The translations under genes were made by a program, and so were the position numbers. A stretch of 59,236 bases of DNA, counting the filler, from Sphacelaria rigidula (taxonomy: Eukaryota): NCBI GenBank assembly GCA_964200075.2. It is 7 parts of 7 records of this genome, joined end to end, with 100 filler letters (N's around TTAATTAATTAA, not from the genome) between each part and the next. Parts side by side here need not be neighbours in the genome. Positions count along the whole stretch, not along the records: positions 33,910 to 42,285 come from CAXNAA020011334.1; 6 more parts are not named here. One strand, given 5' to 3'. Shown here one piece after another: positions 3,203 through 52,265 of the stretch. The notes beneath the pieces are model-generated. The model worked only from the letters and a program-made list of their open reading frames with translations. It ran no database searches and had not been told where the DNA came from. How positions within the stretch are numbered: the first letter of the stretch is position 1; every line of letters starts with the position of its first letter.

Positions 3203-3276
3203 GCACCCCCAAAGCGCGTTGGACGAAAATCGATCAACAAGCTTGACACAAAGATAACGCCAGAACGATGAGTAAG

Positions 3277-4819: not shown

Positions 4820-7600
4820 ATTCCCAATATGTATCGAAACCCAGCATCCTCCGACAAACCTTGGGAAGCGAGAGGGCCACTCTCGCCCACGTACAAAAAG
4901 CCAAAACGAACAACTTCATTCGGCCTGGTCCCATGGACCGTTTCGCCGAGCGGGCGGGGAGCAACATCGCCCGCCCTCGAGTCAGCACAGTGAAGACACC
5001 GGCGAACAAATTCGCGCACATGAGTTTCTATCCCCTGCCAGACACAAAAATCTTGCAAGCGCATGAGCGTCGCAGCCACACCACAATGCCCGGCGTCGCG
5101 CATGTGCGCGCAAATCATCAGACGTACCTGCAACTGCTTGTCAGAACTCAGAATCCACACAACGTTACGGCCACGCACATGCACACGAAACAGACCTTCC
5201 ATTTCCAAGATAGCAGTACCAACGTCCGGCTCGAAAGATTTCACATCCGCATCTTCGGCCCCAAGGTCTTTTCGTTGCGCTTGGCGGGCAACAGATTTGG
5301 ACGGCATCGATTCATCCGGTTCACACGGATCATACACAGCCACAGCACGCACAGGCATTTCAATTTCAACTGTAGGGAACTGCATGGCCAAACTACCCCA
5401 TTGGCACTAGATGCATCCGGGAACATAAATACCTGGCAATCAGAACGAGGATGGAACAGCGTCACGGCATGAGCCACCAGATCCTTCGCTGCCGCCCAAG
5501 CCTGCCCTCCGTCCACGATGCAGCCTCCTTCGGAAACGCCATATCCGGACTGGACCACCCCGTCTGCATATTCCGTAACACCAACCCGAGCGCCAAAAGA
5601 GCCGCCATGCACAACACCAACCAACTCGACTTCACTGGATCGTACCGCCGCGGCTTCGTCTTCACCGCGGACGCCCCAGGTTTTAGCTGAATACGCATGG
5701 GCTCCACGCGCGTAGGGGGATCACCCCGCAGCGCGCGACGAAACGTGTCGACGCGGCGATGCAATATGTCGCCCAGGCGCTCCGCTTTGCTTTTTGCCAC
5801 AGCATCCGTCACGCTCTCCTTCAGCACGACCTTCCGAGCGGACTCCTCTTCCGCTGGAATCATTAACATGTCCGGGCCGCGCTCTACTAAGCGTTTCACG
5901 GCCGCATCCCGTTCCTCGGTCACCTGCCCCCCAGCCTCCTGAAAAGCATCCACCGACAAGCTCACGCAACGACTGCCCGAAAAGGCGGACGTCTCCCCAT
6001 GAGAACCAGGCAGAGACATCCGCGTCTTGATGGAGTCCTTCAACCGCTCATACGGGTCGACTTCTGGATCCTGCAGCATCGGCAGCCCCAGAAGAATAAC
6101 GCCATCCGATCCTGGCACAATCGCGAACGAGATCAGAGGCAACGGCGCCAGCCTCCAAGCAGTCTTGAAGGCTAGCTGCAACGGAGCAGTACGCTCCGTG
6201 ACTAAAACATGCTGACCTGACGCAGTGACTGCCTGCCGCGCCCCAAGCGAAAACGGGATGCGCAGCGGCACACCCGGGAGTTGAAGTTTCAGCATCTCAA
6301 CCATATGCACCGGCAGACTAGTGAAATGGGCGCCAGAACCAAACACAGACCGACCCACAATGGCTCCACGCTGCCGTTGGTTTGGAAGACATAACTCCGC
6401 CGGAATGCATCTGTCGGCAAGCTCGACGGGAACTATTTCCGGTGACCTACGCACTGATAATCCCACTTGACGCCACGGCTGCGCAAGCTGCGCAAGCTGC
6501 GTAGGCGAAGACGCCCCGGCAGGTTCAAACGGCACCGCCGGTGGGTATGACCCCCAGCCAGCAGACCAAGAATTTGGCGAACCTCCGGCCAATGCGTCAG
6601 CAGGCGTCGCGCCTGGCGCTGCTGCCGGTGTCGCCGCCGGCGCTACCACCGGCGCCGGCGCAGTGTTCGACACTGTATAAGTCGGTCGCACCTGCACCGC
6701 CCGTTGCGGAGCAGCAGCACCTACGGCGGCGCCGGACCCATAACCAGGCCCATGCTGACGCCGCTGTCCCTACTGCTGCTGCTGCTGCTGTTGCTGCTGC
6801 GGGCTCGCCTGCGACCCTCCATCGCTGGAGGATCCGCCGCCGCCACCACGGTTACCTCGTCTTTTACCCTTGTGCAGACGATGCTGACGGCGCGCGGCAT
6901 GAGACTGCCCAGACGTTCCAACCGGAAGACGTTGGACAATCGCGCGTGCAATGGCCGAACTGGCCACAACAGTGGTAAGTGCCCGCCGCATGCCCAGCAT
7001 GCTTCCTGATCGCCGCAACCAGTTGCGGCGGGGTGATGGTGATTTTTTTATGCTCCAAACGAGCAAACACTCTCTGCACATACTTTGGCACTTGTTGAAC
7101 CATTGGCACCACCTGATGCCGCACAGCACCCCCTGCGTTAGCGTGCTTCACACGCTTCTTGTACTGAAATTACTTCGTAATAAAAGTGCGAGATGCACTC
7201 TCTGAGTACCCATCCCCGTATTGGGGAGGTCGCAATACTTCCCGCATAACCACGGGCGTCAAGCTGGTCGTAGTCCACGAACCGGTCGCCATGCGCGTAG
7301 CTGCAACCGGCTACGTGCGAACTTTCACAGTCCAGCGGACTTTCGCGAATTGCACACTTCCTTGCCTCGTCGCCGCACCACACAGTCGCAAGAGCCTCCA
7401 AACTCCCACGGTACGCAGCTTCAGCAAATCTCCAGTCTGGATCAATCATAGGTCAGCCTCCTTTCTGCAGCCACCACGAGCTTGAACCCCCGCCACCCGT
7501 CCGTGATGTCAGGTTGTCCCCAGCTGCCAAACGCACTCCGCCGAAATTCTTTTCAGCAGATTTCTAGCACTAACTCTAGCACTAGTACTGATATCGATCT

Positions 7601-7848
7601 TGTGACGCCAGCCAGTGGAAGCACTGTTGGATCACTGCTGTTGAGGGACTCCCCAGTCGTATTGGCCTCAGTCTCAGTTGTCACCCTTTACAACACTCTC
7701 GTTATTCAGGAGTAATCTTCCAAGGCACCCACCTAGACACGCCAGGGCATCAACCTAGTGTCCCCGGTCATTATCGAGATCATCACTACCAACGGTCATT
7801 ATCCATATCATCACTACCAACTCAACGTAACGGCGTATTTTCGTCACA
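7601..7848 (-). repeat. 5' LTR of family A element
   Basis: Direct repeat of 2955-3202 with 7-bp inverted termini. Confidence 0.95.
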
Positions 7849-8378
7849 GGCCCTTGTCAACTGCCCTGAGCATCGGTCTGCTTGAAGTTGACACCACGAC
7901 GGGGGCAGCGACGACATCTCTCTCGAGTCCCGACTAACTGACCAAGAGGATACCATTAGGACAAACTCCTGCAACAATTTTTCTCTGCGCGGCGCTAGTA
8001 GGTGTACATATCTTGGAAATAGAACATATTCTGTTCATATGCTCGGGATCCCTTCTTGTGGTTTTATCCAAATGTGTGACCAACATCTGTGCTTTCGCTT
8101 TGAGGTATTCTCACCAGAAAAGAGTGCAAGGCCAATTGTGCAACCTTGATATAACTTGCTCGACTCGCTGATTGCTCGAGCACAGTTTGGTTTCAGATCG
8201 AGGACCGCGCTATCTAATTGTGTATTACCATTACTTCGAAGTAATACAAGCAGCGATTTGTTTTGCGCAAACGCCAAGTCCTTCGAGAACAATGCTACGG
8301 TAGGGGTGCACGTGTTTCGCGGAATTTTGTCTGGTTCAGGGGCTCCTAACGATTCTAGACGCACAAGAATAGTTGTCA

Positions 8379-8478
8379 NNNNNNNNNNNNNNNNNNNNNN
8401 NNNNNNNNNNNNNNNNNNNNNNTTAATTAATTAANNNNNNNNNNNNNNNNNNNNNNNNNNNNNNNNNNNNNNNNNNNN
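8379..8478. other. Artificial contig-joining spacer (44N + TTAATTAATTAA + 44N)
   Basis: Exactly 100 bp with a six-frame stop linker; identical to five other spacers. Confidence 0.98.

Positions 8479-8694: not shown

Positions 8695-8754
<60 letters not shown>
8695..8754. repeat. (AGC)20 microsatellite
   Basis: Perfect 60-bp trinucleotide run. Confidence 0.97.
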
Positions 8755-10151: not shown

Positions 10152-10826
10152 CTGCTCCATGTTCCGGCAGTTGCCATTCGTTGTTGGTCGTTGGAGGGCG
10201 TTGCCGTTGTTTGGCGGTGGGAGTCATCGCAGCAAGATACGGTTCAAACGACGTAACAGAGAAAAACATCAGGCAGGTGAAGGCATCGATTTTGAGCACG
10301 CAAGGCAACACGCAAGACGTTTCACGCCTGAATCACCGATCGAACACACTCGAACGCAAAACATTGTATTGTATCTCAGACATGGTGCATGTCTAGTGTT
10401 GCATCATCGCCGAACATACGAAAGCTTGCATCCGAAAATGTCGAGCGTATCGACAGAAGCCACACTGAACGCTTGACTGTCGCTCAGATGCGATGCTATG
10501 AAATTCGAACGAACGAACTTCTGCGCAGCATCTTCCACCCAACAGCCCGTGGAAGAGGACAAGCGGGTCGCATCTTCACCCAGAGGGTCGCAATCCCCTC
10601 AAAAATAGTGCTCCCCTGTTTGCCCACATGAGTAAAACACGCCGAGTTCCGGCATCACCGTCACAATCATCGCGACGTCATAATTCCAAAACACTTCAGA
10701 GTAACGGGGAAAACAGCAATACACAAGGCTAGCGAAACAAACGAACAGACACACACACACACTTGCACGGACGCACGCGGGTGCAAAAAAAAAAGCGTCC
10801 AGAGTATCAATTAAAAAAACACTCAC

Positions 10827-11271
10827 CTCGTCATCCTGCCTGCCCTCAATCAAGAACCCGACGCTGATGTTCATCAGGCCAAACTTCGGCTCCAGCTTAT
10901 GCAAGCCCTTACGCGCCAGGAACGACCATTGTCGGACATTCACGTCCATCTCCAAAAACTCATCCGGGGAGAAGCAACCGCTGGCGCCGCTGCCCTCCAA
11001 GGCGCGACCTGCATCGCCGCCGCCCGAATTTGTCTCTCCAGACCCCGATTCTGTCGCATGTGCCATGGTCTTTGCCCCCCCCTCTCCTCTCTCAAACGCG
11101 GCCTCCCCGGTGGGTGTTCGGAGGCCTCGCACGAGGGAGCCACTCTCCGTGATGAGCACAGGTTTTCCGTTGAAGGGGCCGACTAACCGTTGCATCTTGA
11201 TGGCGTCGAGGTTGTTGACGACGGCCAGCGCCTTGAACCGCTTTCGTACGGCGGGTTCCGTCTCCGCTCGT
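10827..11271 (-). CDS. EDR2_C/DUF1336-domain protein, penultimate exon
   Basis: RFKALAVVNN...FNGKPVLI...FLEMDVNVRQWSFLARKGL...VGFLIEGRQDDE|gtgagt, typical EDR2 C-terminal motifs. Confidence 0.85.
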
Positions 11272-12263
11272 CTTGAGAGCACGAGAGAGTGAAATTTGGA
11301 GACAGAGTGGGAGATGACGGGAAGGGGGGGACGGTTATATCATACAATTCACCGTGGAATTAAGTATGCACATTACTGTGATGCCGACACAAATTGGAAC
11401 ACGTGTGCGTGCACACAGCAGCACAGTACAACACAGGTGAGTGGTACATGACATGCTGTACAGGGAATACGTCATTGGTCAAAACTTCAACGTCGCAGTA
11501 GTATATATGGAGAATATTTCGAACTCACGAGCGTGCAGCATACTTTGTAACGAGGCGTCCACGAGATTCAATGCTGATTTTAGTGTGCAAGTTCCTCCGC
11601 ACCCGCCCCGGGAGATGACTGATCGGGCCAACGCCAATACTAGGGGCCCGGTGCGCGGATTTGTGCTACACTTTGTGCGGGGGTACACATGCGTTTGCGA
11701 CCGCTCGAACGGTCGCGCGATCGCGGTGGTCCTGCAGTGTTTCCGGCGGGCATGAACATTTCGAGAGAGGATCTATTCTCACGAGGGCTTGGCAAGGCAA
11801 TACCGAGATCCTCGAAGAAGACGTACGGGACCGGGGCGCAGCCCCGGGTCCCGTGCGGCTTGTAATATGATAAGATGATAATCGACCAGCACAACACACA
11901 CATCTTGAATGTATCAGTCAATAAGCTTGGTATTCATCGAAGTGACGTTCCCTGCATTGCCCAGAGGGAGACAAATCGATCAGGCGTGCAGCATTCGTTT
12001 CTCTCTTTCCCCACGGCTACCATCACGAGAACGAATGCGAGACAAACATCGGGCAAAACAGAAAACTGAACAAGTCCAGCAGCCAACACTATTTTTCGGA
12101 AACAAGCGTGAAAACCACCCGAGTGTTGCCGTAACAAACCCCTGAACTCACAAGAGCCCTGCTACGGCTCAAACAAATACGGGAAGAAAAAACAAAGGAA
12201 GAGAGGGAGGAAGGGAGGCAGGAAGGGAGGGAGGAAGAAAACGGGGAAAGAAGGAGAACCCAC

Positions 12264-16855: not shown

Positions 16856-16955
16856 NNNNNNNNNNNNNNNNNNNNNNNNNNNNNNNNNNNNNNNNNNNNT
16901 TAATTAATTAANNNNNNNNNNNNNNNNNNNNNNNNNNNNNNNNNNNNNNNNNNNN
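16856..16955. other. Artificial contig-joining spacer
   Basis: 44N + TTAATTAATTAA + 44N. Confidence 0.98.
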
Positions 16956-21199: not shown

Positions 21200-23460
21200 C
21201 GCCAGATTGAGAGTCTAGCGTTGATTGAGAGTGGGCTTCACGGTTCGCTCTAGCTTGATCAACTTTTGACGTCTGTACGTTTGCTTGTAACAATGTCGTG
21301 TCCTTACAGCTACACGACGGGATCTTACTCGGGGATATCGGAGGCTTCAGTGGCAAGCTACTTCTACAGAATGCGTATAAGGCCTCGTGTGAGGGCTGGA
21401 GGGGAATTTCGGAACTGAAACTGTTTCAGACATGAATGGACCATTTATGGAAATCTGAAGTTTCATGTTTCTACTGATTCGCGAGACCAACGCAATCAAG
21501 CTGTAGAGTGGATTCATCGCACGGGTAAGGGGCTTTATTCGAGTCGCCCTCTCGCCTGGCTCGGCGAAGTATGATTGATTGATTGATTGATTGATTGTCG
21601 CATTTTACCTGACCCCCCAGGGGTCCAGCCGTGGTCTCATGATGGACGTACGTACCCAACAAAAACGAAACCGAAAACAAGCTCTGAAGAAAAGAAGGAA
21701 CAGGGAAAAAAAAAGAAAGGTCGAACAGAACGACAGAGCAGACCAAGTCCTAACAGTACAAAAAGTAATAAAAAACTCAACACAAGCAAAGCACAGAAAG
21801 AAATGGCCTACCTGGGAAAAAGAAAAAGAAAAAAGGTATAGATCAAGAAAGACCAGTCGATGAGTGAGGGAGGAATTTCTATTCTTCAAGTTCGCACTCA
21901 ATCAAAAGCTAGACTCTCAATCTGACAATAAAAAACGGTTTTCAGTGGTGTGCGTGCAGAGTTGACGAAAACCGCTAAAGATCGAGTATCTACCACGCCA
22001 TCGAGGAGGGTGGGATCGAAGTAAGCAATTGGTCACCGAAGATATGAGAGCTTGTGCGTCTCATCGCTTGTAGCAACCTTATCGGCAGGTCGAGAGTCTA
22101 GCGCCGATTGAGAGTGAATTTTTTCACGAGTCGCTCTAACTTGACCAACTTTCTTCATGTTGTATACGCGTTGTGTGTGTGTGTGTGTGTTTTGTCTGAA
22201 AACAATGTCGTGTGCTCACAGCTACACGACGAGATCCTACTCGGGGATACCAGACGCTTCAATGGCAAGCTATTTCAGAAAGCGTACAGGGCCTCGTGCA
22301 AGGCTTGGAGGGGCATTTCGGAACTGAAAACTGTTTCAGGCATGAATCGGCCAATTTCGGAAATCTGGAGTTCTATGTTTCGGGTGATTCACAAGGCTAA
22401 CGCAATCAAAATATTCATCGGATTCATCGCATGACTAAGAGCTTTGATACGCCCTGCTCCTCGCCTAGCTCGGTGAATTACTCTCTAAGAAACCCCAGTC
22501 GGTAAGTGGATGAGGATTTCCTGTTCTTTGGGCTGCCAGTCTCAATCAAACGTGAGACTGGGAACCCAAAGAATAGGAAATCCTCATCCCCTCATCAACT
22601 GGGGTTTCTTGGGGAGTAATTCACCGAGCCAGGCGAGGAGCCGCCGGACGAATGAAAGCTCTTAGTCGTGCGATGAATCCGATGTATACGTTAATTGCAT
22701 TGGCCTTGTAAACCACCAGAAATCTAGAACTCCATATTTCAACTCTTAATCTGACGAAAACCCTGTTTCTAATGGTTTGTTCTAACTTGACCAATTTTTC
22801 TTCACGTTAGGCAAGTGTGTGTGTGTGTGTTTGCCCGTAGTAATGCCGTGTGCTTGCAGCTGCACTTCGATATCCTATTTACGGATGTCAGAGGCTTCTG
22901 TGACAAGGTGCTACAGAATGCGTGTACGGCCTCATATAAGACCTGGAGGAGTATGTCGGCAGTGTAACTATTTCAGGCATTAGTCGACCATTTCTGGAGT
23001 TTCTAGCTTTTTGCCGATTGACGAGGCCGATGCAATGATAATGATAGTATACATTGGATTCATCCAACGGCGAAGGAGTCTCATTAACGAGGCGTTTCTT
23101 TCAGAATTTTTCAACTTTTGCCGGAAAACACAGTCCTGACTTCCTCGAGAAACAAAGTGCTGAAAACAACCCCGACGCTAAATTTCCGGTAAATGTGTAA
23201 TCAGTCTTGAATCGATCTATCTGTCTGACCTGGTCAACAAATCTGCTCTTACGTTTCTTGGAGAAAGAAAAAGTTGTTTTTTCGGGAAAATTCGGAGATT
23301 TAGGTACGAAAAAAAACAAATCCGTAAAAGAACACCTCTAAGAGCTTTCATTCGAGCCTCTCCTTCATTGTCTCGGTGAAATATTCCCCAAGGAACACCG
23401 ATCTACCAATGGATTGGGATTTCCGATTCTCTAGTTTCTTATTCTCAATCAAATACTTGT
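21200..23460. repeat. Array of diverged ~450-bp units with one inverted segment
   Basis: Unit (GAGTCTAGCG..CAGCTACACGAC..GGAACTGAAA..GGATTCATC..CTCAATCAAA) starts at ~21210, ~22090 and ~22780, with a partial copy at ~23340 and an inverted copy at 22553-22740. Confidence 0.85.
21572..21860 (-). mobile_element. 3' end of a non-LTR retroelement with (CAAT)n tail
   Basis: CTGGACCCCTGGGGG..AAATGCGACAATCAATCAATC on minus; the same end occurs on plus at ~57545-57640. Confidence 0.65.
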
Positions 23461-25332: not shown

Positions 25333-25432
25333 NNNNNNNNNNNNNNNNNNNNNNNNNNNNNNNNNNNNNNNNNNNNTTAATTAATTAANNNNNNNNNNNN
25401 NNNNNNNNNNNNNNNNNNNNNNNNNNNNNNNN
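25333..25432. other. Artificial contig-joining spacer
   Basis: 44N + TTAATTAATTAA + 44N. Confidence 0.98.
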
Positions 25433-33690: not shown

Positions 33691-33702
33691 CTCGCATCGT
33701 GG

Positions 33703-33742
<40 letters not shown>

Positions 33743-33809
33743 TGGGGGGCGGTGGGCGCGGGCGGGGGGGGGAGCGCCAGCCCCCCCACATGTCGCAATC
33801 GCCCTCAGC

Positions 33810-33909
33810 NNNNNNNNNNNNNNNNNNNNNNNNNNNNNNNNNNNNNNNNNNNNTTAATTAATTAANNNNNNNNNNNNNNNNNNNNNNNNNNNNNNNNNNN
33901 NNNNNNNNN
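33810..33909. other. Artificial contig-joining spacer
   Basis: 44N + TTAATTAATTAA + 44N. Confidence 0.98.
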
Positions 33910-34051
33910 TCCAACGCTTGGGTTCGTTCTAGCCAATGTCGCCAAAATGACGCGCTTCATGCGGCCTGAACCCGAACATCAGGCGCTGTATGGTCATTTT
34001 TTTCGTGACACCTTTAGCTGGTTTTGGGGAGGGGCTATCGTAGAAAGTGTC
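33910..34051 (-). mobile_element. Partial MITE (GACACTTTCTACGA TIR family) inserted in gypsy pol
   Basis: Reverse complement of 35516-35660; cut by the contig end. Confidence 0.8.
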
Positions 34052-36751
34052 GGAAGCGTGAAGTTGATTTGCGTCATTTTCTTCGGGAAATATTGCTGTA
34101 CTGGGTAGGAGATACCGTCCAACACCGCCCGTTGAATAAGGGATATCGGTCGATGCGCAAGGGAGCTGCCGCTCGGGAACTGGCACATGAACACTCAGCG
34201 CGGTTTGTTATGACAGGCTATAGACTTCTTTCGCGTTCACAATACATGCAGTGTTTTCATGGAAAACGATTGCCGAAAGGGGCGTATTTTTTATATAAGG
34301 CCTTGGATTCACTGTGGTGGTTGGATAAAGTTCATTTGGTCGATCCTGCGTCTGACCACTCCTACTTTATCCGTTTCCTCGATGACCCGAGCCCCCTTAA
34401 GATTCGCTTGGATGATGCTTACTACACCGAGGAGCCGACCGCTCGGAGGGGATCCTGGTGCCTCCAACGACACGACCAAAGCGAATTCGAAACAGCCGTT
34501 CCACGGAACACGGACACCGCTTGGGATGCAGATGACTCAGGATGCCGCATCCGAGTCTGCTTCCACATTCACCTTGCGTAATGTACCGCGTTCGAACCGC
34601 TTGTCTTAAACCGTAGCGTCGTTGGAAAACCATGTGCTCCCTCCCCCTCCCCCCCCTTCATCTTTTTTTCGTACTGATTAGCCCCGTACTTGTAACGGTT
34701 GATGTTGTGTTTCGTATGTTGTGTTTGATCTTTTGTTTTCGTTTTTTTGTGTTTTGTGTTTTGGTTTTCTTTGCCTTTGCGTCATTTGTTTCGATTTGTT
34801 GTTGTCTTTGTTTTTCTTTGTTTTTTTCACTTATTTTCTTCTCTTTTTGCCTCGAGCTTTGTTTTCGATTTGTTTTGTTCAATGGATAATTTTCTTGGTT
34901 AACCCTGGGTTCATCTGGCAAAGTACAAGTGATGACCGTTCCATTCCTGACCCCGAGTCTGGAACCTTGAACCTCCGTCGTCCGCGCCGTACATTCACAA
35001 CCATGCCGTCTGCTGGCACAGTTGCCACAAGTTATTTATTCTTCCATTGTTTTCATTGTACGCACATCTTGTCTTGCTTTGTTATTACATGGTCTTTATT
35101 GCTGATTTGTTTGTTCTGATGGAAGAGTTTCCGGAGAAAGCGCCAGCCATACCTGACGCCCACGTCTGGAATATTTGCGCACTTGTTCAATCGCTCCGCA
35201 CGCAAATGCCGCCTCCCTCTTCGGGACCGGTCATGACGTACCTTTTTCTGTGTCATATGTTGTCGTTTATTTTTTTGTCTTTTCGGTTGAGAGTTGCAGG
35301 AGCGAGCGCTGCATATACCTGACCTCCCTGTCTGGAATAATTGCGCTCTTGCCCAACCGCTCCGTACACACATACCGCCTCCTCCTTCGGGATCGGTCGT
35401 GACGTGTCCCCTTTTTGTGTGCGTGCCACGCTGAGTTTTGCATTAACATGGGCGATCGTAGCCGAAGCAGAATGCCTGAAATGCTTTGACCTTCTTGATT
35501 GAAACGTTTGACCCTGACACTTTCTACGATACCCCCCCCCCCAAAACCAGCCCAAAAGTGTCACGAAAAAAATGGCCATCCAGCGCCCAATGTTTGGGTT
35601 CAGGCTGCACTGCACTAAGCGCCTCATATTGGCAACATTGGCGAGAACGAGCACAAGCGTGAGAATTCCCAGCTGCTCGTTGTGCGCGGATTTTCCCATT
35701 TCGATTTACTTGAAGATTTCGCCTCCCAAAACCATGCACTTTTGGGCGGGGGGCTGTCGTAGAAAGTGTCCCCTGCTTGCTTCATACACACGATAACCGC
35801 TCCCGTTCGCAAGGACGGTTGCCACGTGTTGTCTCTCTGCTTTATGTTGCGGATATTTCGTTTTCGCCGTTGCCCAGCGTGCCCCTGGGTTTGTATTTAT
35901 TTTTGGTCTTGCTTTTTGCGTCTATGACGGGAATTTGCCATGAGTGCTCCAACGTTCCTGACCCTTGAGTCTAGAACACTTGGCCTATTTTTAAGCGAAT
36001 CCTGCCACGTTTGACCAACCTCGTTTGAAGGAGGGTCACGGGTGATGCGACGCGATAATTTATACTCGGTGATTGGTAAGTTACAGCCAGATCACCACTG
36101 ACCACGTCGTACATAGCGGTGTTACTTTTGTCATGAAGTCACGGTATAATCGGCTGCGAACGTCTCCTCATAGAGGACAATTACGTATCATGATGAGATA
36201 GATTGCTCTCCCGGAACTGTCCGTTCCGCCATGTCGATATTCGACCGTTGGTACAGCCTACAAGCTCAGAGTCCGCCACTCGCTATTTTTTTCTGTCACT
36301 TTTACCAATTTTTTGCGTACAATTACCCGCCCCTGAAATCGGTCGGTGGTGGTTTGTTTTTATCAGGGTTTATTGGACGAAGTAACGTGAAGGTACGACC
36401 GGCTGGGGTTTTTACTCCAGTTTGTGTTCGGGCCAGTCTCGTTTTAGTCCGAACGAGCAAACACTGTGAAGAGTGGGCTGCGTTGGTCCTCTCTGTCCAG
36501 TGTAGTTGTCGTGGTTCAGAAACGTGTTGGGCAATCCGCCTTGGAACTACGTAGTAGGCCCGAAGGTTGTGCATTGACTCCACCACCTTTCTTTTTGACG
36601 TGTACGGGCACCTGACCTCACAAACCGGTCGGCTGTTTTCGTATCGTCGTGTGATAAAAAAAAGAAAAACTGTACGGCTGGATCATCAACCAGACGTCCG
36701 AAGCAAGTCGTTGCTCTCACAAACATGTACCGACAGTTAACTCACGTATCA
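34052..36751 (+). mobile_element. 3' part of a gypsy element (family B): pol tail, long 3' region, putative PPT and LTR
   Basis: 34052-34540 translates to a close homologue of the 46738-47160 pol tail; purine-rich GAAGGAGGGTCACGGG precedes TGATGCG (36043)...CGTATCA (36751); LTR limits tentative. Confidence 0.7.
35516..35770. mobile_element. MITE, 255 bp, 4-bp TSD
   Basis: TIRs GACACTTTCTACGATACCCCCC / GGGGGGCTGTCGTAGAAAGTGTC; CCCT on both flanks. Confidence 0.88.
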
Positions 36752-37824
36752 TGCTAATTGGTGTTTTGTATCAAGGTATGGTGTTCGCGGGAAACTACCA
36801 TTTCCGCGACAAATTCGGCTGTACGTTGCTGGCTTTCGCTGATTGACTAGGACGAGTGATTAGCATGAACTTGGTTATCGGATTGATGAAATGCCTTGGC
36901 GGGCTTGCTTGTTTTTCCACCAATGACCTAAAACAAATCGGATACCCGGAAAAAAGTGAACTATTTATACATGTTATATATATATATGGCAGGGTAGGAT
37001 AACCGTTTAAATGATAGGTCTCTGATTTCCTGTGGCTATCCCGGAAATGCTCACGACATTCTGAAGACACTGCATTTTGTAGTATATGGTGTAATTGTTG
37101 AGTTTGGATTTTTTAGTTTGGATTTCCTATGACTCTTCTAAAGGGCTCACGGAACATGAGAACAAAAAATATTGTATCGGTGCGATTTTGTTTCTTTTGC
37201 TTTGTGCTTGTGTTTATAGGTTATTGATTTTTTTGTGCTGATCGCCCCTTCCCGTACCCCGTACCCACGAAGACTCGAATTTCAAATGGACTCTCAGTTT
37301 TCTGTGGTGTGGGAGAGGTGTGGCTCGATACACGTTCGTCCCTTTTGGAGAAGGAACTGCACTTGAACGATCCAGGATGGGCTAATGTGATGGTAAATGA
37401 CTGAGAGACGGAATTAAACCCGTTCTTTGGGATTTGTAGATGATCCCCAGAAACGACCGGCGGGTATGAACAGATTCTAGTCGGATGTGTGCTTGCGTAA
37501 CGTAGAAACTGGACTAATACAGTCCATCGTCGTTATTGCGCCTGCAGGCTGTAGTCGGATTGATTGTATCGGATAAGCCATATGGGGCACGTGCCTGCCA
37601 AAATAGGTAGATAAAAGGGCACGCGCCACAACGAGTTGGTATTTTGGCCATTGTATGCGTGGCGAGGAGTTTTTGAGGGCAAGCGCGAGCAGCGCCCAAC
37701 ATCGCCCAGAGAGAGGCTTACCGTAGAAACTAATCACAGGAAGGACCACCAGCTTTCATCTGCTCTACGCGACTTCTCATCTTCAGGACGGCAAGCCGTG
37801 GCAAGCTAACGAGAGTGAGTCACG

Positions 37825-38446
37825 TGTAACGTATCCCTTTTGTGTCCTTTTGCTTTTCCTTTATTGAAAGAGCTCGGTGCTTACTTTCAATAACAGCTGT
37901 CTGCTGTTGACAAGTGCTGTGTGCGAAATACCCTACTACTTGAGTTAACGAGTCGAAAACAGGACCAGTGGGTCTGTTACAGGGTGGATAATGACCCTGT
38001 ATAGTAGACTATAGAGCAATTGGATCATGGCTACACCTTCATCAGTCTAATGATGACTTGGTGGGAAACATATCGTGCAACTCCGTCCCCTACCGGCCAC
38101 AGAGAAAAGCACACGAAAGCAAACCAATTCTGAAGGCAAAACTGATAATCGTCGCCCGACTATTGTATTGCACTTCGTATCTGCTGACCACTGCTAACGA
38201 CACGCATCATCCACCAAGGATCGACCCACATGCTGAGCAAGGTGCTTGTGCACATCTTCACTTCTGCACTAGGACTGAGACAGGCAAGATCCACTCTGTG
38301 TTGCGTGGTTCCTACCGTAGGTTTGATCGTATCGGAATGAAAGTGTCACGGTAATTAGGTAGCCAGCGAAGTCTGGTGTGAAACGTGTCCCCGATCGGTA
38401 GAGGTCCCTGCGTGCCTAACACAGACACATCTTTGCGTCTGCGACA
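37825..38446 (+). mobile_element. Putative solo LTR
   Basis: TGT...ACA termini, followed directly by a TGG-starting tRNA complement (PBS geometry); GAGTCACG direct repeat at 37817-37824 and 38521-38528. Confidence 0.55.
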
Positions 38447-38518
38447 TGGTGTCCAATCCGAGAATCGAACTCGGGTTTCCACAGCCACAATGTGGTGTAC
38501 TGACCGCATTTTTGTACG
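38447..38518 (-). pseudogene. Reverse-transcribed copy of mature tRNA-His(GTG), lacking the 5' acceptor strand
   Basis: Minus strand: GTAC-loop-GTAC D arm; CCACA-TTGTGGC-TGTGG anticodon arm; CCGAG-TTCGATT-CTCGG T arm; ATTGGAC-A-CCA end. Confidence 0.85.
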
Positions 38519-39049
38519 CCGAGTCACGCCCAACATAAATTCAAGGTATGCTTCACCTGCTGGGTAAATTCACGGCGTCTCTGCAGCCCAGACCGCATGA
38601 GACGTTGCTCGATGGATGTGCTGACACGCGGGTGCGCCTACTTCCACAGCATGACCTACTGCGCAGCTTCTGCGCCGTTGAACAAACATCGATCTGTACT
38701 GGTACACATTCTGGATCATGACATTCCGTGCGGTACAAATCTTCCTATTGTCTGTAGAGGTGCCCAATTCAAGAGGCACGGCCGTGCACGCGCTGTCAGC
38801 ACTTTTACGCGCTGAAACTTCGCCCGCATTTCATGTACACCATGGGCAACAACCTCGTGTTGCTGAATCTGGGGTTGCGTTATGGGTGCGTGCGTATCGG
38901 GGCGAAAAGATGTCGGACTCTGTTCCGAACCATGTTTTTTGTTTTCGGCGTAACACAGCAATTTGTAGCACGGGGGTTGGGACGCAATAGGAGAAAAAAA
39001 TCACTAAAAAATCTGAATCTACTGTGGTATCTGCTGGCATTGGGTAAGT

Positions 39050-40340
39050 TACGCCCGCGTTCTGTGCCGGTGCGAACCGGCGTGGAAAACCCCAGCTACC
39101 TTGCTGCGAGGCGTTTGACCGTATTTAAACGGTCATTCCATAGTGCCAACAAGCAGGAGGCTCCTGCGGATGAAGCGGTGGAGCACTCGGTCGATCGGGG
39201 GCCCGAAATGTTCATGGACCCACCGGAGGAGAGAGGTGCAAGAGAACGTACGCTAGAGGATAGCGTGCAGCAGGCCGAGCAGAAGGGCCTGAGCGCAGAT
39301 GCCGCATATCGTCCGCGTGATATTTTGGCTCGTCGCGTGGATGCCTTTCGTTGTGCGCTGCGTGGTGATCCGCCAGCGAGCATGGAGCCCATGAGGGTGC
39401 ACCTCAAGCCACAGGCAAAGGCTGTGAAGGCCAACCCCCGACGTTATGATCCGGGGAAGACCGGGTGACTTGCTTCATGCATCACAGCTTTGTTGGCGTT
39501 TGGTTCAGTGGTCAGGAACATCCAGGCTGTGTGGGCGAGTCCAGCGATGGTAATGCCGAAGAGGGGCACATTCCGTTCGGTCAGCGACTATCAGGTGGTG
39601 AACACGCAAGTAAAACAGTCTCCGGGGGTAATGCCAAGCCAAGAAGACATGCGCGAGTTGCTTAAAGCCCCATGCTTCAGAAAGTTGGACCTGCTACAGG
39701 GGTATTGGCAGATGCCTCTGGCCCCGGAGGCTCACGAAATCTTCACGACCGTCACGCCTGACGGTTTGTTCACGCCTACTCGTGTCCCGCAGGGCGTGTT
39801 GAACGCCACGGCGTATTTCCACGGTGTGCTGACTGACATTTTGCGAGGTCTAAGCTGTAAATTGTGGGTGGATGATGTTTCCTATTTTGCTAAAACCGAA
39901 GAAGCATTGTGAGTTTTGCTTGACCAAATTTTTGGCCGCTCAGAGAGTGTTGGTCTGAGCGTCGCTGCGCATAAGTGCACCTCTTTTTCTTGCGAAGTGG
40001 TTTCGTCTGGTAAGGTGTACTCCAAGGGTACTGTTTCGCAGGATCCCGTACGCATCCCAGGTTTGAGCAATATGCGACGTCCTCAAACCGCTCGTGAGCC
40101 GATGCAGGTTCTGCAGGCGGTGAATTGGTTGCGGACTTCGCTCCCGCGCATGGCGGAAGTACTTGCGCCGCTTTGCGGGGTTTTGAAACCACTTATGGTA
40201 GGGGCTTTGTGTCGGACCAAGCGGGTGGCGCGTACTCGTATCATCCCGGAGGACGCTTGGACAGAGGATCTGCTGGCGTGCTGCGCAAGATTTGGTGACG
40301 CAAGCGGTACCGCTGTATCATCCTCGTCCAGGCGTTTCCG
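39050..40340 (+). pseudogene. Gypsy pol fragment (family A relative) with reverse transcriptase
   Basis: VDRGPEMFM..ALRGDPPA homologous to 5560-5900; RT motifs KLDLLQGYWQ, TRVPQG, LWVDDV; stops and frameshifts. Confidence 0.9.
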
Positions 40341-40749
40341 CGCTGGCTTCTGTCACTGGCGGCGAGTGGAACATAAATGTCATGGATACTGATACGTTGC
40401 GTGACAAGGTTCGAGGCGTAGTCGACGAGTAAGTGCGGTTTTGTAACGAAGTGTGCAATCTGCTGTTGCGGTGTCTCGCGAAACCAAACGTAAGCTTGCT
40501 CAGGGCCAAGCTGTGTTACCCAAGCTTGCAGTTGGCGGTTCCGCCTTTTATGCCCGTGTTTGTAGGCAAGGTATGATGCCCAAGTTTATGTCCACATACA
40601 GGTCCGTCGCGAGTGGTCGGAAGGGCGCCTCGAAAGGGATGCGTGGTCAATGGTCAAACGACTGAGGCGAGCAACCAATGACTACCCCCTCCCCCCCTCC
40701 CACTCCCCTCCCCCCTCTCTGTCTCCTCCTCGAATTATGCCGTGTCTTC

Positions 40750-41060: not shown

Positions 41061-42285
41061 TTGTCGCCCCCAGCTCCGGTAGTCGGCGCACTATGAAGAA
41101 CACGTCGGAGGTGGATCGACTACGCCGGAAACCGCACTGTTCGTGCGGAGTAATGCCACGGTAGGGGTGCTATTTCTTTTCTGGGGCTTTGTTTTGGAGA
41201 AGTCTCCCGACGACAAATATCTGGGCTTTGGTGTACAGCCTCAGAAACTCTTTTTGACTGAAACGTGCACCCCTAGACTACCGTGGCATCACTGTCCTAT
41301 AGAATCTGGTGGGCTTCGCAGCAGTCGCTTAGGCGGTTGGCCACGATCTTCAGGAGCACTTTGCGTGCGAGACCAACGGAACTCCCCTATGCTAGTTTGC
41401 AGCTGGATCGATCCCATTTCTTGTAGAGTGCTTCGGAACACGACGATTCCTGTCGGACACCAGCCGTATCGCAAACCCCGGAGCGGTCAACGACTTCATC
41501 GTGAGCAACTTTCTTGCATACACGCCACGCGGCCGCCCCCCTTCCAATGCCACACGGATTGCCGTGAAGCAATCGTCAGCGTGCACCGACGTGCTACATC
41601 TAACACTGGGTGTAATGCGCATGTGCTATGGGTGTCTATACACGTGTGTTCGGGCTAGATTATGCACGCGTTTCAGTCACGCCTGATGAGATTGCGAGAC
41701 CCGTTTCCGACTGCGTCTACTGCCGAACGAATAAGCCCACCTTCTTGGAAAGTCCATATCGTGTTTCCTTACTAGGATCAAAACGTTGACGGCAGACAAG
41801 CTGCCATGGTCGCTTGTATTTCTGCCCATTTTTTTCTCGACGAGACGCGGCCAAACGGGTACTGTGGCGATGATGAGGGGAAATTGTCAATCTTACCTCC
41901 TGGCCTCCCCCATACTTTGGGACAAAGAATACACATGTGCATAACTGAGCTAGTGTTTCGGTGTTCGCCACGACGGACACTCGATGAAGAACTTGCTTTC
42001 GATCGGGCAGTATATTTCATGTCCGCCTCACCCTTTTTTATGGTCACCCTAGTACGTTCCTTGACGAAGTAGGTTCGTTGCGGTAAACATAGTTGCCGGC
42101 TGGTGGCGAGGGTGTATGTGCGCTTGTTTTTCTCATGCTTTTTCTGTGTTTTAGGCTGCCATAAAGGTTGCACGAAGAAACGAATCCTGCACACCTACTT
42201 ACCGAGCCCCCCCCACCCCCCCCCCCCCCCCCCCCCCCCCCACCCCCCCCCCCCCCCCCCCCCCCGCCGCCCCCCGCCGCCCCCC

Positions 42286-42385
42286 NNNNNNNNNNNNNNN
42301 NNNNNNNNNNNNNNNNNNNNNNNNNNNNNTTAATTAATTAANNNNNNNNNNNNNNNNNNNNNNNNNNNNNNNNNNNNNNNNNNNN
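42286..42385. other. Artificial contig-joining spacer
   Basis: 44N + TTAATTAATTAA + 44N. Confidence 0.98.
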
Positions 42386-46737: not shown

Positions 46738-48366
46738 TTATTCCGTGTCCCACGCCGTGCCGGGGTTGCGCAAGACAGCTGTGTCGATGTCCCCTTTGTC
46801 GTGTCGTTGTAGGCACCAAGATCCTCGGCGAGCGGTCGGCATCTCGGTGTAATAATCGTCGTTGAGACGGATCTTGAGAGGACCCGGGTCATCGAGGAAG
46901 CGGATGTAATAGGGATCGTCCGCCTCAGGATCTATCAAATGAATCTTCCCCAGCCACCACCGCGAATCCATAGCCCTGTACCAAAAATATTCATCTTTCG
47001 GCAAACGTTTCTTCGAAAAAGAGCGCAGGTATTGCGAACGAGCTGCTGCGCCTTTTCGCATAGACCTATATCGTTTGTTCAACGGGCGGTGTTGGACGAC
47101 ATCTCCGACCCAATATAAAAGTATCTTTCTTCGAAAATGACTCAAATCCTCTTCCCGTTTGCACGTAACACGCATGAGGCCTTTCCAGTGGGTCTGATAC
47201 AAAACCGCAATTTTACCGCCTCGACCTCGAACCAATTGGTGGCCCGAGCTGCGATCTACCACTACACGTTCAAGAGGACCGCCAGCGTCTTCGACGGTCA
47301 TGTGGTACGGGGGGGATTTCGCCGCATACCTGGTTAGCACATACTGACTGAGCCCCATAGGCAATTGCTTGGGCAGGTCACAAGTGTCGAGAGGGGGGAG
47401 ACACGGCTTGCACCGAAGCATCGAGACCCGGTTTTTGGGTTTGACGCCAGGTTCATCCGTGGGAAAATCCAAATACATAAGCTTCTCACCTACTGGTTTA
47501 TCGTCAGGGGCGGTATCACAGGGCCCAACTGCCAAGATCTTCCAAGGACCACTCCAATTCAAGCAAAGCTTTGACTTTAACATCTTATCCGACGACGACT
47601 TAGCAGAGCTTGCACCTTGGGTTACAGTTCTCACATCGTTATACACCCATGCCCAGTCACCTACTTTGTAGACCGGACGGTTGTTCACTGCATCATCCAA
47701 TACGCGGTTTGCCTTACCTACCTTTGCTGCGTTGATCAAATTCTGCTCCCGTACCACCTCATATGCAAGACGAAGACGATTACTAACAGACATATGATAC
47801 TCAACGATATCCCGATCCAAACTCTGGTGATCACCAGAGGGTTTCCTGTCGAACACTGTTAATGGCAGCCTGGGCATACGACCAATATGAACTTTATTGG
47901 GAGCCAAGCCTGTGGCGGCATTGACGGAATTGTTGTAGTTCATTTGGACAAGGGGCAAGTGCAGGTCCCAGTCCGTTTGTCGCTCATTGGTCACTGTGGC
48001 AAGCATTTGCGCCATCGTGTGATTAACTCGTTCGGTCCCATCATTTGTGGACGGATGGTATGAACTAGTAAAAAGACGATGGGCACCCAGGAGATTACTG
48101 ATCGCGGCAGAACGTTTGCCGGCAACATGTGGGCCGTTATCGGATAACAAACGTTTGGGGACACCCCACTGAGGGATGTATGTGTACACAAGGACGTTGG
48201 CAGTCCCTTCTGCACTATAATTGGCCTCCGAAACAGCATTCATCACAGCATGTCGACTGAACCGATCCGTAAACAACAAAATGTACTTGTTACCACTACC
48301 AGTGAGGGGCAGGGGGCCAAAGCAGTCCCATGAAACTATTTCACCAGGCCCATTGGGAAGGGGCAT
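46738..48366 (-). pseudogene. Integrase core plus C-terminal domains (542-aa open segment of pol)
   Basis: VSWDCFGPLP, LLSDNGPHV, TNDGTERVN (D,D,E); WSGPW; YQTHWKG chromo-like segment; separated from the HHCC finger by a stop at 48391. Confidence 0.9.
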
Positions 48367-49494
48367 GGAGATTACCGGCCATGTAACTGTTTAACGTGAA
48401 GTTTTGCGTGCTTGGCAAAGAAGACACCGCCGAACCCACCAACGCACACATTGGCCCATACAAATCCACCAAGAAAAACGTTGAAGCATCTGAGATATCC
48501 TAGCGACGCCCAGATGCGTGGATGCTTGCGGGTGGCATTCATGGAGAACCCATGGACGCAGAAGCATCGGAATATAAATACATACGGGGGCATCACCCAA
48601 CGAACGGGCGTGACTACTTGTAGATTTCCCTCCAGGAGGGGTCGTGGGGGGCCGGTGAACTAAAAGAACAACGCCAGCATCATCCGTGTAAAGCATTCCT
48701 TTACGCGATAATTCAGTAACTTCATCCTGTGTGGGGGCTCGGTGGAGCCCTACTGGCAAAAGGAACTCAGCTTCTGGAAAGGGGGAGGGGCATCCTTTGG
48801 ATAGATAACGTATAACTGCATTACAAGCAGGTGCAGCTTGCTGTTCCCGGGTCCAATCGGCGTGAGAAAAGAGGGTCAGTTCCTTGAATACACTGTCGGA
48901 GGGGTTGTCCAAAACGCAGGGGATCAATCGCGGTGGGATGGACACGAGGCGTTATTGGGATCAAGGGCAGAAGGGGTGGTCAGTGTATTCTCAAACGGAA
49001 CGTTCACCTCTGTTCTGACGTGATGGAGGGTGTCGGATGGTGTGGTACCGGAGGTGGCACTACACGGGGTGGGGGAGGCACAGTCGAGGTCTCGACTATG
49101 GTGGGCAGAGGTGGTTTGAAAGGTGTCGGTTTTCTGGGGGCTTTGCGCCGTGGAGGTGGCGGGGGCGCAAGGAGGCTATCGGGGACTGGAATGGGGTTGG
49201 GGATTGGGAGGTTTAGGCCGGCTGCAGCCAGGGCGGCTGCCGTTTCCGTGGCACGGCGTCCTGGGATCCGGCTCGGGATGAGGTCTCGGACTTGAACCGG
49301 GAGGACGCAGTCAGTAGAAACCGGCTCTACAGTGCAAACCATCCGATGACCAGACGCACGAAATTGATCATACCCGCCGGTAGTTGCACGAATTTCACTC
49401 CCAACTGAACACAACGATCGTGGGGCCAAACTTCCCAATACAGAAGCGTGAGCCGAAGGCGTCAGCTTATGTTGAAGAAGTGCCGAGGTGTGGT

Positions 49495-50200
49495 TCAGTG
49501 AGAATGGCCTAGGAAGCCGATGCGCGTGGCTCCAATGCGGGATTTAGATGGGGCGAGCTTCAAATTGGGTTGTTTAAAACAGGCGAAGAAGGGCGCCAAA
49601 TGTTCGATGTGTTCAGTAGGTGTACTGCTGTGAACCACCGCATCGTCGGGGTACATGCGGTATTTGGACAGTCCATCAATGACGCGAAACATCACACGTT
49701 GAAACGCTCCTGGGGCGCCAGCGGCACCTTGTAGAGTGACCAGCCATTCATATAGACCTGACCTGGTGCAAAACGCCATCAGCTCGATAGAGTGCGGATC
49801 CATCACCAGTTGGTGGTAACCGGACTACATGTCGAAGTTCGAAAAACCTTTGCCCCCGCCGAGGGAGTCGATGATTTCATCTATCCGGGGAAGAGGTAGA
49901 CGTACGATTTTGGTGACTGCGTTTAATCGTTGATAATTGACGGTCAGTCGGATCTATCATTCTTCTTCCGGACGACTACCAAAGGCGAGGCCCACGGAGA
50001 CGTTGAGTGCCGTATTAACCCGGCGGACAAGTACTCGTCGAGAATTACTTGAATTGTACCCGCTAGAAGAGGGTTTGTACGGTACGGACGCATAGCGATA
50101 GGTGTCGTACCATCAGGAATGTTGATTTTGAGCGGTATAGTGTTGCAGCGGCCTAAATCTGTTGACGATTTGGAAAACCGTTCAGAGTATCGTATCAAGA
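49495..50200 (-). pseudogene. Gypsy reverse transcriptase, disrupted
   Basis: Conserved RT motifs with a frameshift near 49945, an in-frame stop and YPDD in place of the usual YxDD residue. Confidence 0.88.
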
Positions 50201-50761: not shown

Positions 50762-50861
50762 NNNNNNNNNNNNNNNNNNNNNNNNNNNNNNNNNNNNNNN
50801 NNNNNTTAATTAATTAANNNNNNNNNNNNNNNNNNNNNNNNNNNNNNNNNNNNNNNNNNNN
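50762..50861. other. Artificial contig-joining spacer
   Basis: 44N + TTAATTAATTAA + 44N. Confidence 0.98.
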
Positions 50862-52265
50862 TTTTTTTTTTTTTTGTTTTCTATTTTTGTTTTATTTTGC
50901 CCGCCTTGAACCGACCCGGGGCCGCCCGCCGCGCCCCCCCCCCCCCCCCCCCCCTCCCCGTCCACAGGTGAGTGAAGTGATACAACCAATCTCACCGTGC
51001 TTGACAAGAGGCGTTTTTGGTACAGCCTCCTGCCGACGATATTGATGAATAAAGCACCTTTCCGGGAAAAACTCCCGATTTTGGAACAAATTTTCTCCCA
51101 CAAAGGAGCCAACATGAAACGGTTTTAGGGGAGTTATCTGGGAACAAAAAAAGAATTTCAGATGAAGAAAAAAATCAGGGCCGGAAGAAGCGGAGCCTGA
51201 AAAGAATATGGGTCACCTGCCTCAATCTGTACCCGATCAAAAATCTCACGTGAAAATCATGGGCAGGAAGCACCAAACCTCCACATGCGGTATTCCAACA
51301 CACAGCAACTTGAGTATATACACGGTACTGCTGAACAGCATGATGTTGTGTGTGCTCAACTGTTTCTCATGATAGTGAACGCATGACTGGATGTACAGTA
51401 ATGCTGCCATGATCACTGCTGCTGTTCGTTGTGCTGTAACGGCCAATGAAACGGGGACAAACGGGCCTCCGAGTCTTGCATGCAAAGCACATTTTTTTCC
51501 TTTCAAATAAGGAGGAAACCTGACCCAATACTTGCGCACGCAGGCGGTTTCGTGTGTCGATTACCTGGAGACTCGGCTAGACTGGCTCACGGTAGTCATA
51601 TGGGGTAGGCGCGTCTTTGCTCAAGGGAGTTGGAGGTTCGACCCACTATAACCCTCTGTGAACTTGGCGGAGTGCACGTGCCGCCCGACTCTCATGAGCT
51701 TCGGCCCTTCTGCACTTTTTTTAGTGATATTTGCGCCTTCTCTTTTCCCCTCACCCCCGCCTCTAAATATCTAGAATGGCACGAGCAGCCCAGTGAACCA
51801 GGGGCTTACAATTTCTGTCGGGTGGGTACGGTAGGGAACATATTCATACATACATGTATATGTAGTTGTGTTCAAAGTGTAGAATTCAGCCAAGTGCCTG
51901 TTTCAAAAGAAACAACGCGGGGGATCGGCCCGAAACGTAATTTTGAAAGAAGAAAACAAATCATGCTTCTTTTCTTGTGCACTGCCCTTCATGTCACAAT
52001 ACTCATCGCCACGTACTCTACCGAAAATTATTCATCGATTGCCTTTAACGTGAACGAGTACGCATGTTCATCCTATCCGTTCATACACTCATTTACCCTG
52101 CACAATTAGCTAGCCAGGCATCATAGAGTTCAACACCATGTACGACCGCCTCTACCATCCAATATGCATTAACCTCATATCTTGTGTGCTGGCGTATGCC
52201 GTCTGCCCCCTTCACCCTCCCTGTGGGATTCACCCCCCACCCCCCCCTCGCCCGCGCACTACCAG

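Follow-up and report, generated by a model that had tools for sequence, protein, structure and literature searches.

The window analyzed here is a joined stretch of 59,236 nt (filler included) from Sphacelaria rigidula (GCA_964200075.2), and all positions are given along this stretch. The window is eukaryotic and transposon-rich, and it contains a repeat of the long terminal repeat (LTR) type that runs directly into an antisense copy of most of a histidine transfer RNA (tRNA-His). The junction reads ...ACA/TGG without a spacer and is followed by the exact complement of tRNA-His(GTG), including CCA and A73 (Table 1). The original prediction, made from the sequence of this locus, had described it as an LTR fused to tRNA-His and flanked by an 8-bp duplication. 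The junction, CCA, A73, the T and anticodon arms and the flanking pair of GAGTCACG octamers are all present, but three details of that description, namely the length of the LTR, the extent of the tRNA copy and the status of the 8-bp repeat, have to be revised.

Table 1. Features at and around the LTR-tRNA-His junction. X1, X2 and X4 are public runs, organism B is a second organism, and P0154 is a database open reading frame, all described in the text.
Feature	Position	Strand	Basis or remark
First GAGTCACG copy	37817-37824	+	Proposed left target-site duplication
Repeat segment, 150 bp, starting TGTAACG	37825-37974	+	Contig joints in X1, X2 and X4
LTR-type repeat, 472 bp, TGTTACAGGG...GCGACA	37975-38446	+	Contig joints, TG..CA ends
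Primer binding site, 17 nt, complement of tRNA-His positions 76-60 including CCA	38447-38463	+	Contig joints
Mature-type tRNA-His(GTG) copy, 59 nt, positions 18-76	38447-38505	-	Sequence reading, Rfam
Intervening 15 nt, from the end of the secure tRNA copy to the second GAGTCACG	38506-38520	.	No canonical tRNA 5' part
Second GAGTCACG copy	38521-38528	+	Inside the P0154-like stretch 38506-38529
Other repeat, unrelated to the LTR, also in organism B	38572-39035	.	Contig breaks at 38572
Ty3/gypsy-like pol, 5'-truncated, degenerate, two in-frame stops	39036-40392	+	RVT_1, E 7.1e-9

The limits of the repeat were derived from contigs of four public runs, placed on positions 37500-38850 (1351 nt) at a likeness of at least 80%. 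Runs X1 and X2 come from the same organism as the window, X11 comes from a second organism (hereafter organism B), and X4 is RNA by guess. The joints between contigs and window are those listed in 24 of the 533 rows of loose contig ends, and all joint counts are lower bounds. The numbers of contigs placed, 935 (X1), 923 (X2), 74 (X4) and 93 (X11), show that this neighborhood is repetitive throughout.

Read from the sequence, TGT is present both at 37825 and at 37975, ACA at 38444-38446 and TGG at 38447-38449, and the original prediction had taken the first TGT as the start of a 622-bp LTR. The contigs argue for the second one. In X2 at least 26 contigs start to match at 37975, the sequence before this point being unrelated (agreement 0.38, near random), and at least four contigs of X4 do likewise; at least five contigs of X1 match through 37974 and then diverge (agreement 0.77). 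Because of these joints and of the TGTTACAGGG terminus at 37975, the most likely start of the abundant LTR is 37975, which gives it a length of 472 bp; a terminus of the same TGTTAC type can be deduced at other tRNA-His junctions as well. The 150 bp preceding it are probably a different repeat or, less likely, part of an LTR variant with a long U3, and the 622-bp unit is probably composite. No second copy of the LTR or of the whole unit was found in the window. Run X4 has high cover on 37960-38465 and none on 37822-37959, from which, its RNA nature being a guess, no conclusion about transcription is drawn.

The identification of 37975-38446 as an LTR is well supported by its sequence features. 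It has TG...CA termini, is a dispersed multi-copy repeat with unrelated flanks (hundreds of contigs at the likeness threshold given above), and its 3' end is abutted, with zero spacer, by the complement of a tRNA 3' end (TGG...). The 17-nt primer site occurs once in the window. At least five contigs of X1 and at least four of X2 leave the window sequence at 38463, the last nucleotide of this site, with an agreement of 0.97 among their continuations; therefore ordinary copies of the family consist of the LTR, 17 nt of tRNA-His complement and a leader of their own. The proposal of an LTR with a tRNA-His primer binding site is thereby borne out. The leader of ordinary copies is absent from the window, and hence the window copy departs from a normal tRNA-His-primed element; 14 other loose-end strings that were searched in the window gave trivial local matches only. 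Two direct LTRs around gag-pol with a polypurine tract were not found in the window either. A metagenome scan with a 19-mer of the LTR end and primer site was discarded, all four loci being chance matches of 22-23 nt in unrelated sequence, and scans of viral contigs with an LTR 25-mer and a tRNA 22-mer gave zero matches each.

The Rfam tRNA model matches the minus strand at 38458-38517 with 29.1 bits (gathering score 29) over model positions 10-63, and direct reading of the sequence carries the copy on through the 3' acceptor strand, A73 and CCA to 38447. Both the anticodon stem (CCACA/TGTGG) and the T stem (CCGAG/CTCGG) comprise 5 bp and are perfectly paired, and the anticodon loop TTGTGGC carries the anticodon GTG, that is, His. 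The secure part of the copy contains the D-loop GG, the 3' strand of the D stem, the anticodon arm, a 4-nt variable loop and the T arm, with the B-box-like GTTCGATTC intact. ARAGORN reports no tRNA genes across the window, since the 5' acceptor strand of this copy is missing. No further tRNA remnants turn up elsewhere in the window in an Rfam E-value scan, and the minus strand of 38447-38528 folds without a cloverleaf (z = 0.16), as expected for a truncated tRNA. Judged by its sequence, a 59-nt colinear tRNA match whose CCA begins precisely where a TG..CA repeat ends is no chance event.

The copy had been described as ~70 nt long, reaching into the D arm; its likeness to other copies and to a gene-like tRNA-His, however, ends at 38505 (G18). 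In the D-arm region the window reads GTAC AAAAATGC before GGTCA, where organism B has the canonical TA GTAT AGT, and a gene-like open reading frame (ORF) designated P0157, considered below, implies the same canonical D arm as in organism B. The A-box region of the window copy (38506-38517) thus differs from the canonical arm of both. Because the canonical D arm is absent beyond 38505, the secure copy amounts to 59 nt (38447-38505, tRNA positions 76 to 18). Rfam pairs 38514-38517 with 38497-38500 as a GTAC/GTAC D stem, inserting 5 nt into the D loop, but this stem would need a D loop of 13 nt and is doubtful. The window and P0157 both encode the same 18-residue peptide, VSTPHCGCGNPSSILGLD.

CCA is added to tRNAs after their transcription. 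The window copy has CCA encoded and followed by the antisense LTR, and it has neither the paired acceptor stem nor the CCA-less 3' end with a T-run terminator expected of a nuclear tRNA-His gene; since CCA is present and the acceptor stem is absent, the unit is not a tRNA gene. The use of CCA and A73 as a mark of retro-origin, on which the original prediction relied, agrees with the gene-like P0157, a tRNA-His ORF without CCA. Moreover, the LTR, the primer site and the further tRNA complement form one uninterrupted stretch that is colinear with mature tRNA, CCA included, as would be expected if the primer had been read through. As to marks of a mature template, the window copy stops short of position -1 and has no mismatches at positions 58 or 37.

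The GAGTCACG pair had been taken as a target-site duplication, a claim that is now weakened. With the left boundary fixed, recurrence of an 8-mer in a 60-nt zone behind a 622-nt unit is seen at 58 of 57,752 positions (0.10%), and the chance becomes ~0.4-2% (our own arithmetic, not a computed value) if the choice of the left boundary was guided by the repeat. The octamer itself occurs four times in the window, with 1.9 occurrences expected. Its second copy lies within 24 nt (38506-38529) that resemble the matching eight residues of ORF P0154, with a score of 16 and a position-specific null fraction of 6.05e-4, perhaps three times higher if offsets are allowed. This likeness, if real, would make the second GAGTCACG part of the copied sequence and not a duplicated target. 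An extension of the likeness past 38529 was rejected, as the frameshift-tolerant tail score was 33 against a shuffled mean of 34.9. A target-site duplication is therefore doubtful, given that the LTR likely starts at 37975, that no repeat of 4-7 bp accompanies this start (such duplications typically have 4-6 bp, and the 8 bp belong to a start at 37825), and that the P0154 likeness includes the second copy; the chance that the pair is a true duplication is about one in three. A join of 37824 to 38521, that is, an empty site, was not found among the eight contig joints listed, which is uninformative for contigs this short and a filtered list.

Junctions of the same type recur outside the window. 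In organism B at least 8, at least 19 and at least 9 contigs start to match at 38443, 38444 and 38445, respectively, and thus include TGG and the preceding CA; at least 36 contigs of this organism have an LTR-like ...CA end, TGG and 36-59 nt of tRNA-His. Their upstream consensuses, with the first matched window letters added, end in ...TGTGACA, ...TGTAACA and ...TGTATCA, the last bases alone being trustworthy at an overall agreement of ~0.5. The tRNA matches end either at 38482/38484, after 36-38 nt (at least seven contigs each), or at 38505, after 59 nt (at least five contigs), and at least five contigs run past 38505, where they continue as the canonical D arm in the tRNA sense. The organism-B contigs listed as matching only the tRNA part cover 38434-38496, 38439-38505, 38443-38505 and 38444-38507, with 4-6 differences each. 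Summed word depths on 38466-38511 are 9,638 and 30,065, compared with 22-85 for single long repeat contigs, but summed word depth is not copy number, and the hundreds of tRNA-His-like copies that it suggests are not used as evidence here. One X11 contig repeats the segment consisting of CA, TGG, the acceptor strand and the T arm in tandem (38445-38481, going back 37).

Further junctions were found by searching junction-spanning ORFs against a large protein collection, where the matches, confirmed in 2/2, 1/1 and 3/3 cases, yielded six ORFs from ENA assemblies. CCA is present in five of these six translated tRNA-His sequences, and the four that are readable beyond CCA continue with TG. The tRNA copy ends at about position 14 in P0152 (TPC-YRE after CCA) and at about position 22 in P0153 (TPC-stop); P0154 starts at the ATG of ...CA/TGG, has T alone visible after CCA and reaches at least position 15; the copy is full length in P0155 and near full length in P0156 (DTM-L... 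in both). The gene-like P0157 lacks CCA (LGLD-MWRSFFV): TG follows directly after A73 (...LGLD/MW...), and SFF possibly reflects a T-rich trailer. In P0153 the tRNA copy adjoins an EsV_1_7_cys motif of the host, which is interrupted at position 21 of the 35 in the profile. Motifs of the EsV-1-7 kind are typical of brown algae, and this one, together with the labels of the public runs ('algae metagenome' or coded organism names), suggests a brown alga or a relative as the source. P0155 and P0156 share with the CCA-less P0157 the residues 'SC' before tRNA position 1, hence a T at position -1, where mature tRNA-His has an added G. This suggests that in some events at least a precursor tRNA or a gene may have been the template.

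The sequences after CCA-TG differ from junction to junction, both at the nucleotide level (TGTCGC in the window; TGTTAC, TGATAC and TGTCAC in organism B) and in translation (C-Y-R-E in P0152, M-L-P-T in P0155, M-L-T-N in P0156). The tRNA end points vary as well, from ~22 through ~18 (window) and ~14-16 to full length, and the flanks past the tRNA are unrelated, with no similarity among P0152-P0156, as would be expected of read-through products. These differences in LTR ends, tRNA end points and flanks favor repeated independent events over one amplified chimera. Judging from the junctions compared, the window unit is thus one case of a recurrent class that spans several LTR families and at least two related organisms. 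The supposition that the chimera is multi-copy therefore holds loosely, for the junction type recurs in organism B and in five database ORFs, but no second copy exists in the window. The further idea of a single mobile tRNA-LTR family is not supported, since both the sequences after CCA (all five of those known past TGT are different) and the tRNA end points differ.

The explanation that we prefer, with a probability of roughly 0.55, is that the locus is a fossil of aberrant reverse transcription of a high-copy tRNA-His-primed LTR retrotransposon, in which the primer was read through. In normal plus-strand synthesis the LTR would be copied, followed by the first 17-18 nt of the primer tRNA, and the primer binding site would thereby be regenerated. 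Here the polymerase would have continued past the T arm, the variable loop and the anticodon arm into the D loop, giving a product made up of the LTR, TGG and the 59-nt antisense tRNA-His, which would be unable to complete replication. Its fixation in the chromosome would have followed a non-canonical route, the product being either captured at a DNA break or joined at one end by integrase, with host repair finishing the event, and the unit would now lie among other repeat fragments. Copying far past the normal stop is the simplest source of such a long tRNA copy. What the data show is the junction anatomy, the 17-nt primer site of ordinary copies, the recurrence elsewhere and the lack of CCA in a gene-like tRNA-His; that the primer was read through, and how the product was inserted, are inferred.

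Synthesis of plus-strand strong-stop DNA comes to an end about 18 nt into the primer, at 1-methyladenosine 58 (m1A58). The original prediction had proposed an integrated strong-stop product with read-through, and the junction anatomy fits this proposal, but the canonical duplication does not accompany it. Without the m1A58 stop, reverse transcriptase copies more of the tRNA and the product fails in plus-strand transfer, according to the available part of PMC8599865. In yeast, breaks capture LTR intermediates of complementary DNA (cDNA) with cDNA-only nucleotides (40 of 56 in the wild type; PMC11372161, in the part accessible).

Several observations weigh against read-through. The 8-bp duplication fits neither integrase, the complete element at 2955-7849 having one of 4 bp, nor plain end joining, and no duplication flanks the LTR start at 37975. 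The 24-nt likeness to P0154 hints that a unit larger than the LTR plus tRNA was copied, for which read-through alone is insufficient. The two leader residues that P0155 and P0156 share with P0157, with T and not G at -1, point to a precursor or gene template rather than to mature tRNA-His. Moreover, mature eukaryotic tRNA-His is expected to carry m1A58 and 1-methylguanosine 37, which should block or mis-template reverse transcriptase, and the copy is clean through both positions. Finally, full-length elements of this family were not encountered, the LTR being recognized by its termini, copy number, flanks and primer site, and the relatives of the unit are known as contig ends or translated ORFs, not as readable DNA.

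One alternative is a mobile tRNA-headed chimera resembling a short interspersed element (SINE), in which a minus-strand RNA polymerase III transcript, starting at or just upstream of the tRNA-His-like head and running through CCA into the antisense LTR, would be copied to new sites, the window holding one of the copies. It would account for the multi-copy state of the tRNA-like part with the LTR-end junction in two organisms, for the intact B-box-like motif, for the leader residues common to P0155, P0156 and P0157, which such a transcript would keep, and for the 24 nt shared by the window and P0154 past the tRNA copy; an 8-bp flanking repeat, too, fits insertion of the type known for long interspersed elements (LINEs). 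However, neither the common body nor the LINE-derived, A-rich or simple-repeat tail of tRNA-derived SINEs was found: the sequences after CCA-TG differ among junctions, as do the tRNA 5' end points, and in the tRNA sense the unit ends in an LTR terminus instead of a LINE tail, poly(A) or a simple repeat. Moreover, the A-box region of the window copy is non-canonical, and X4 has little cover on 38466-38511, which, as X4 is guessed to be RNA, is weak evidence. We consider such an element unlikely.

We see just as little probability in a fusion at the DNA level with an antisense tRNA-His gene or pseudogene, by recombination or template switch, or in priming by a CCA-tailed pre-tRNA-His with an unprocessed 5' end. 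The full-length P0155 has CCA and yet T at -1 and a serine codon as in P0157, and P0156 has the same 'SC'; an unmodified template would explain why positions 58 and 37 were copied cleanly, and unrelated flanks past the tRNA are what upstream regions of separate tRNA genes would give. Nevertheless, the window copy stops at ~18 and P0153 at ~22, within a host gene motif, where recombination with a gene would carry the whole gene. The shared 17 nt are very short for homologous recombination, which would have to recur in several LTR families, and the leader consists of two residues of translated ORFs, not of DNA.

The pol downstream of the unit belongs to a degenerate frame bearing reverse transcriptase (38758-40392, plus strand), which has 28,221 matches at E <=1e-3 among 1.84 billion representatives. 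Full-length relatives comprise 1500-1900 aa, the matching part being at residues ~500-900. In a tblastn search of 33-43 kb with 15 of these relatives, all matches start at 39036 or later and neither flank has any, and no gag-protease match with E <= 0.01 was found before 39036. Contigs of 272 and 494 nt match from 38572 rightwards only, and this break is seen in both organisms. Since the pol is truncated, a repeat lies in between and no second LTR is present, the LTR-tRNA piece is not canonically placed for this pol. Over 39265-39561 the pol most resembles the element at 2955-7849 (53% identity over 99 aa), the LTRs of which differ. It is highly unlikely, therefore, that the unit is the in-place 5' LTR and leader of a decayed ordinary element with a heritable extended tRNA-His complement and a GAGTCACG repeat arisen by chance: a plus-strand pol does lie 0.6 kb downstream, at least 14 organism-B contigs cease to match after 36-38 nt, which could reflect a longer primer site that has become fixed, the repeat has the ~0.4-2% chance given above for a boundary chosen afterwards, and its second copy lies in the sequence shared with P0154, but the leader that ordinary copies have behind the primer site is missing, the pol is 5'-truncated, split off by an unrelated repeat and nearest to an element with different, 249-bp LTRs, no 3' LTR is found in 21 kb downstream, and the flanks past the tRNA differ among the six copies (window and P0152-P0156).

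The element at 2955-7849 (minus strand) is an apparently complete small LTR element with 249-bp LTRs (TGTGAC...GTCACA, 97% alike), a 4-bp GGCC duplication and a pol ORF at 5462-6769; there is no TGG start beside its 5' LTR, so its primer is not a tRNA 3' end of the usual type. A gypsy-type element with rve, Integrase_H2C2 and RVT_1 matches is found at 46738-49824 (minus strand), and an integrase C-terminal fragment, 65-75% identical and in the opposite orientation, lies 12 kb from it at 34030-34557 (plus strand); no LTR pair was found for either of them.

Among the few host-gene-like signals of the window is an ORF at 10599-11339 (minus strand) with an EDR2_C match (E 5.5e-10). At 22456-22641, two 89-nt inverted repeat arms, 8 nt apart and 89% complementary, lie within a cluster of direct repeats spaced by 638/910 nt (21289-22967); the match of this hairpin to mir-74 (36.5 bits) is below the gathering score of 57, and it is probably a repeat hairpin and not a microRNA gene. 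The window also contains poly-C tracts of 25-60 nt (33696-33745, 42201-42277, 50910-50959), and a (CAG)n run (8695-8754), which gives rise to sub-threshold Rfam matches to Afu_254, isrG and mir-6132. Six pairs of 44-N blocks, 12 nt apart, are located at 8379-8478, 16856-16955, 25333-25432, 33810-33909, 42286-42385 and 50762-50861; with their spacing of ~8,477 nt they look like masking or scaffolding rather than biology, and they hide sequence beside two of the poly-C tracts.

Considering again the reading of the locus as a read-through fossil, parts of it have counterparts in known systems. As in the plus-strand strong-stop and read-through DNA described in the available part of PMC8599865, U3-R-U5 is followed in the window by the complement of a tRNA 3' end with CCA, extended past 18 nt. 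In that source, so far as it is available, such molecules are dead-end intermediates formed in vitro or during infection (PMC8599865), whereas the window product is fixed in a chromosome and extends to position 18. It also differs in that its type recurs in several LTR families of at least two organisms and in that its primer is tRNA-His. Capture of Ty1 cDNA at breaks in yeast, where LTR-rich cDNA is inserted by end joining, is a plausible route for the window piece; the captures reported in the accessible part of PMC11372161 were, however, induced and carried few extra nucleotides, while here 59 nt of tRNA are found at a natural locus. Moreover, the 8-bp flanking repeat would be unexpected from end joining.

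The strong-stop DNA model for the origin of tRNA-derived SINEs was reportedly proposed by Ohshima, Okada and co-workers in the 1990s. The minus strand of the window, with its tRNA body containing a B box, CCA and the antisense LTR, resembles the intermediate postulated by this model, but no amplification of a single family was found, the bodies differ, a LINE-type tail is lacking and the A-box region is non-canonical. Colicelli and Goff are said to have described, in 1986, a tRNA copy between the LTRs at retroviral circle junctions. There, as in the window, the copy of the tRNA primer abuts the U5 end of an LTR; those junctions, however, have two LTRs in an unintegrated circle, while the window has one chromosomal LTR and nothing LTR-like past the tRNA.

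The strong-stop model is not mentioned in PMC3747384. In the literature searched, which was covered partially, we found neither a report of chimeras of an LTR and a whole tRNA in algae nor a description of tRNA-His as a retrotransposon primer in algae or plants, and the accessible main text of a broad survey of plant LTR elements (PMC6317226) mentions neither tRNA-His nor His. The present locus documents tRNA-His as a retrotransposon primer.

A bolder version of the read-through explanation, which we regard as tentative and rather unlikely, is that several tRNA-His-primed LTR families, probably of brown algae, routinely copy the whole primer and that the resulting chimeras have been inserted repeatedly; the primer may then be a hypomodified, 5'-unprocessed, CCA-tailed pre-tRNA-His without the m1A58 stop and without G-1. 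If such a precursor were indeed the primer, this would be the first case of a precursor tRNA priming a retroelement, and if copying of the whole primer were routine, there would be a natural and ongoing supply of molecules consisting of tRNA, CCA and antisense LTR for the birth of SINEs from strong-stop DNA.

Primer read-through is known already as a dead end in the test tube and in infection, and experiments in yeast have shown that breaks can capture LTR cDNA. A natural and recurrent record of LTRs joined to near-complete, CCA-bearing tRNAs, in several LTR families and two or more organisms, would show that such dead-end products reach the germ line. The chimeras would read out the stops of reverse transcriptase on the tRNA in vivo and hence the modification state of the latter. 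Moreover, they would supply real examples of the intermediate that has been proposed for the origin of tRNA-derived SINEs.

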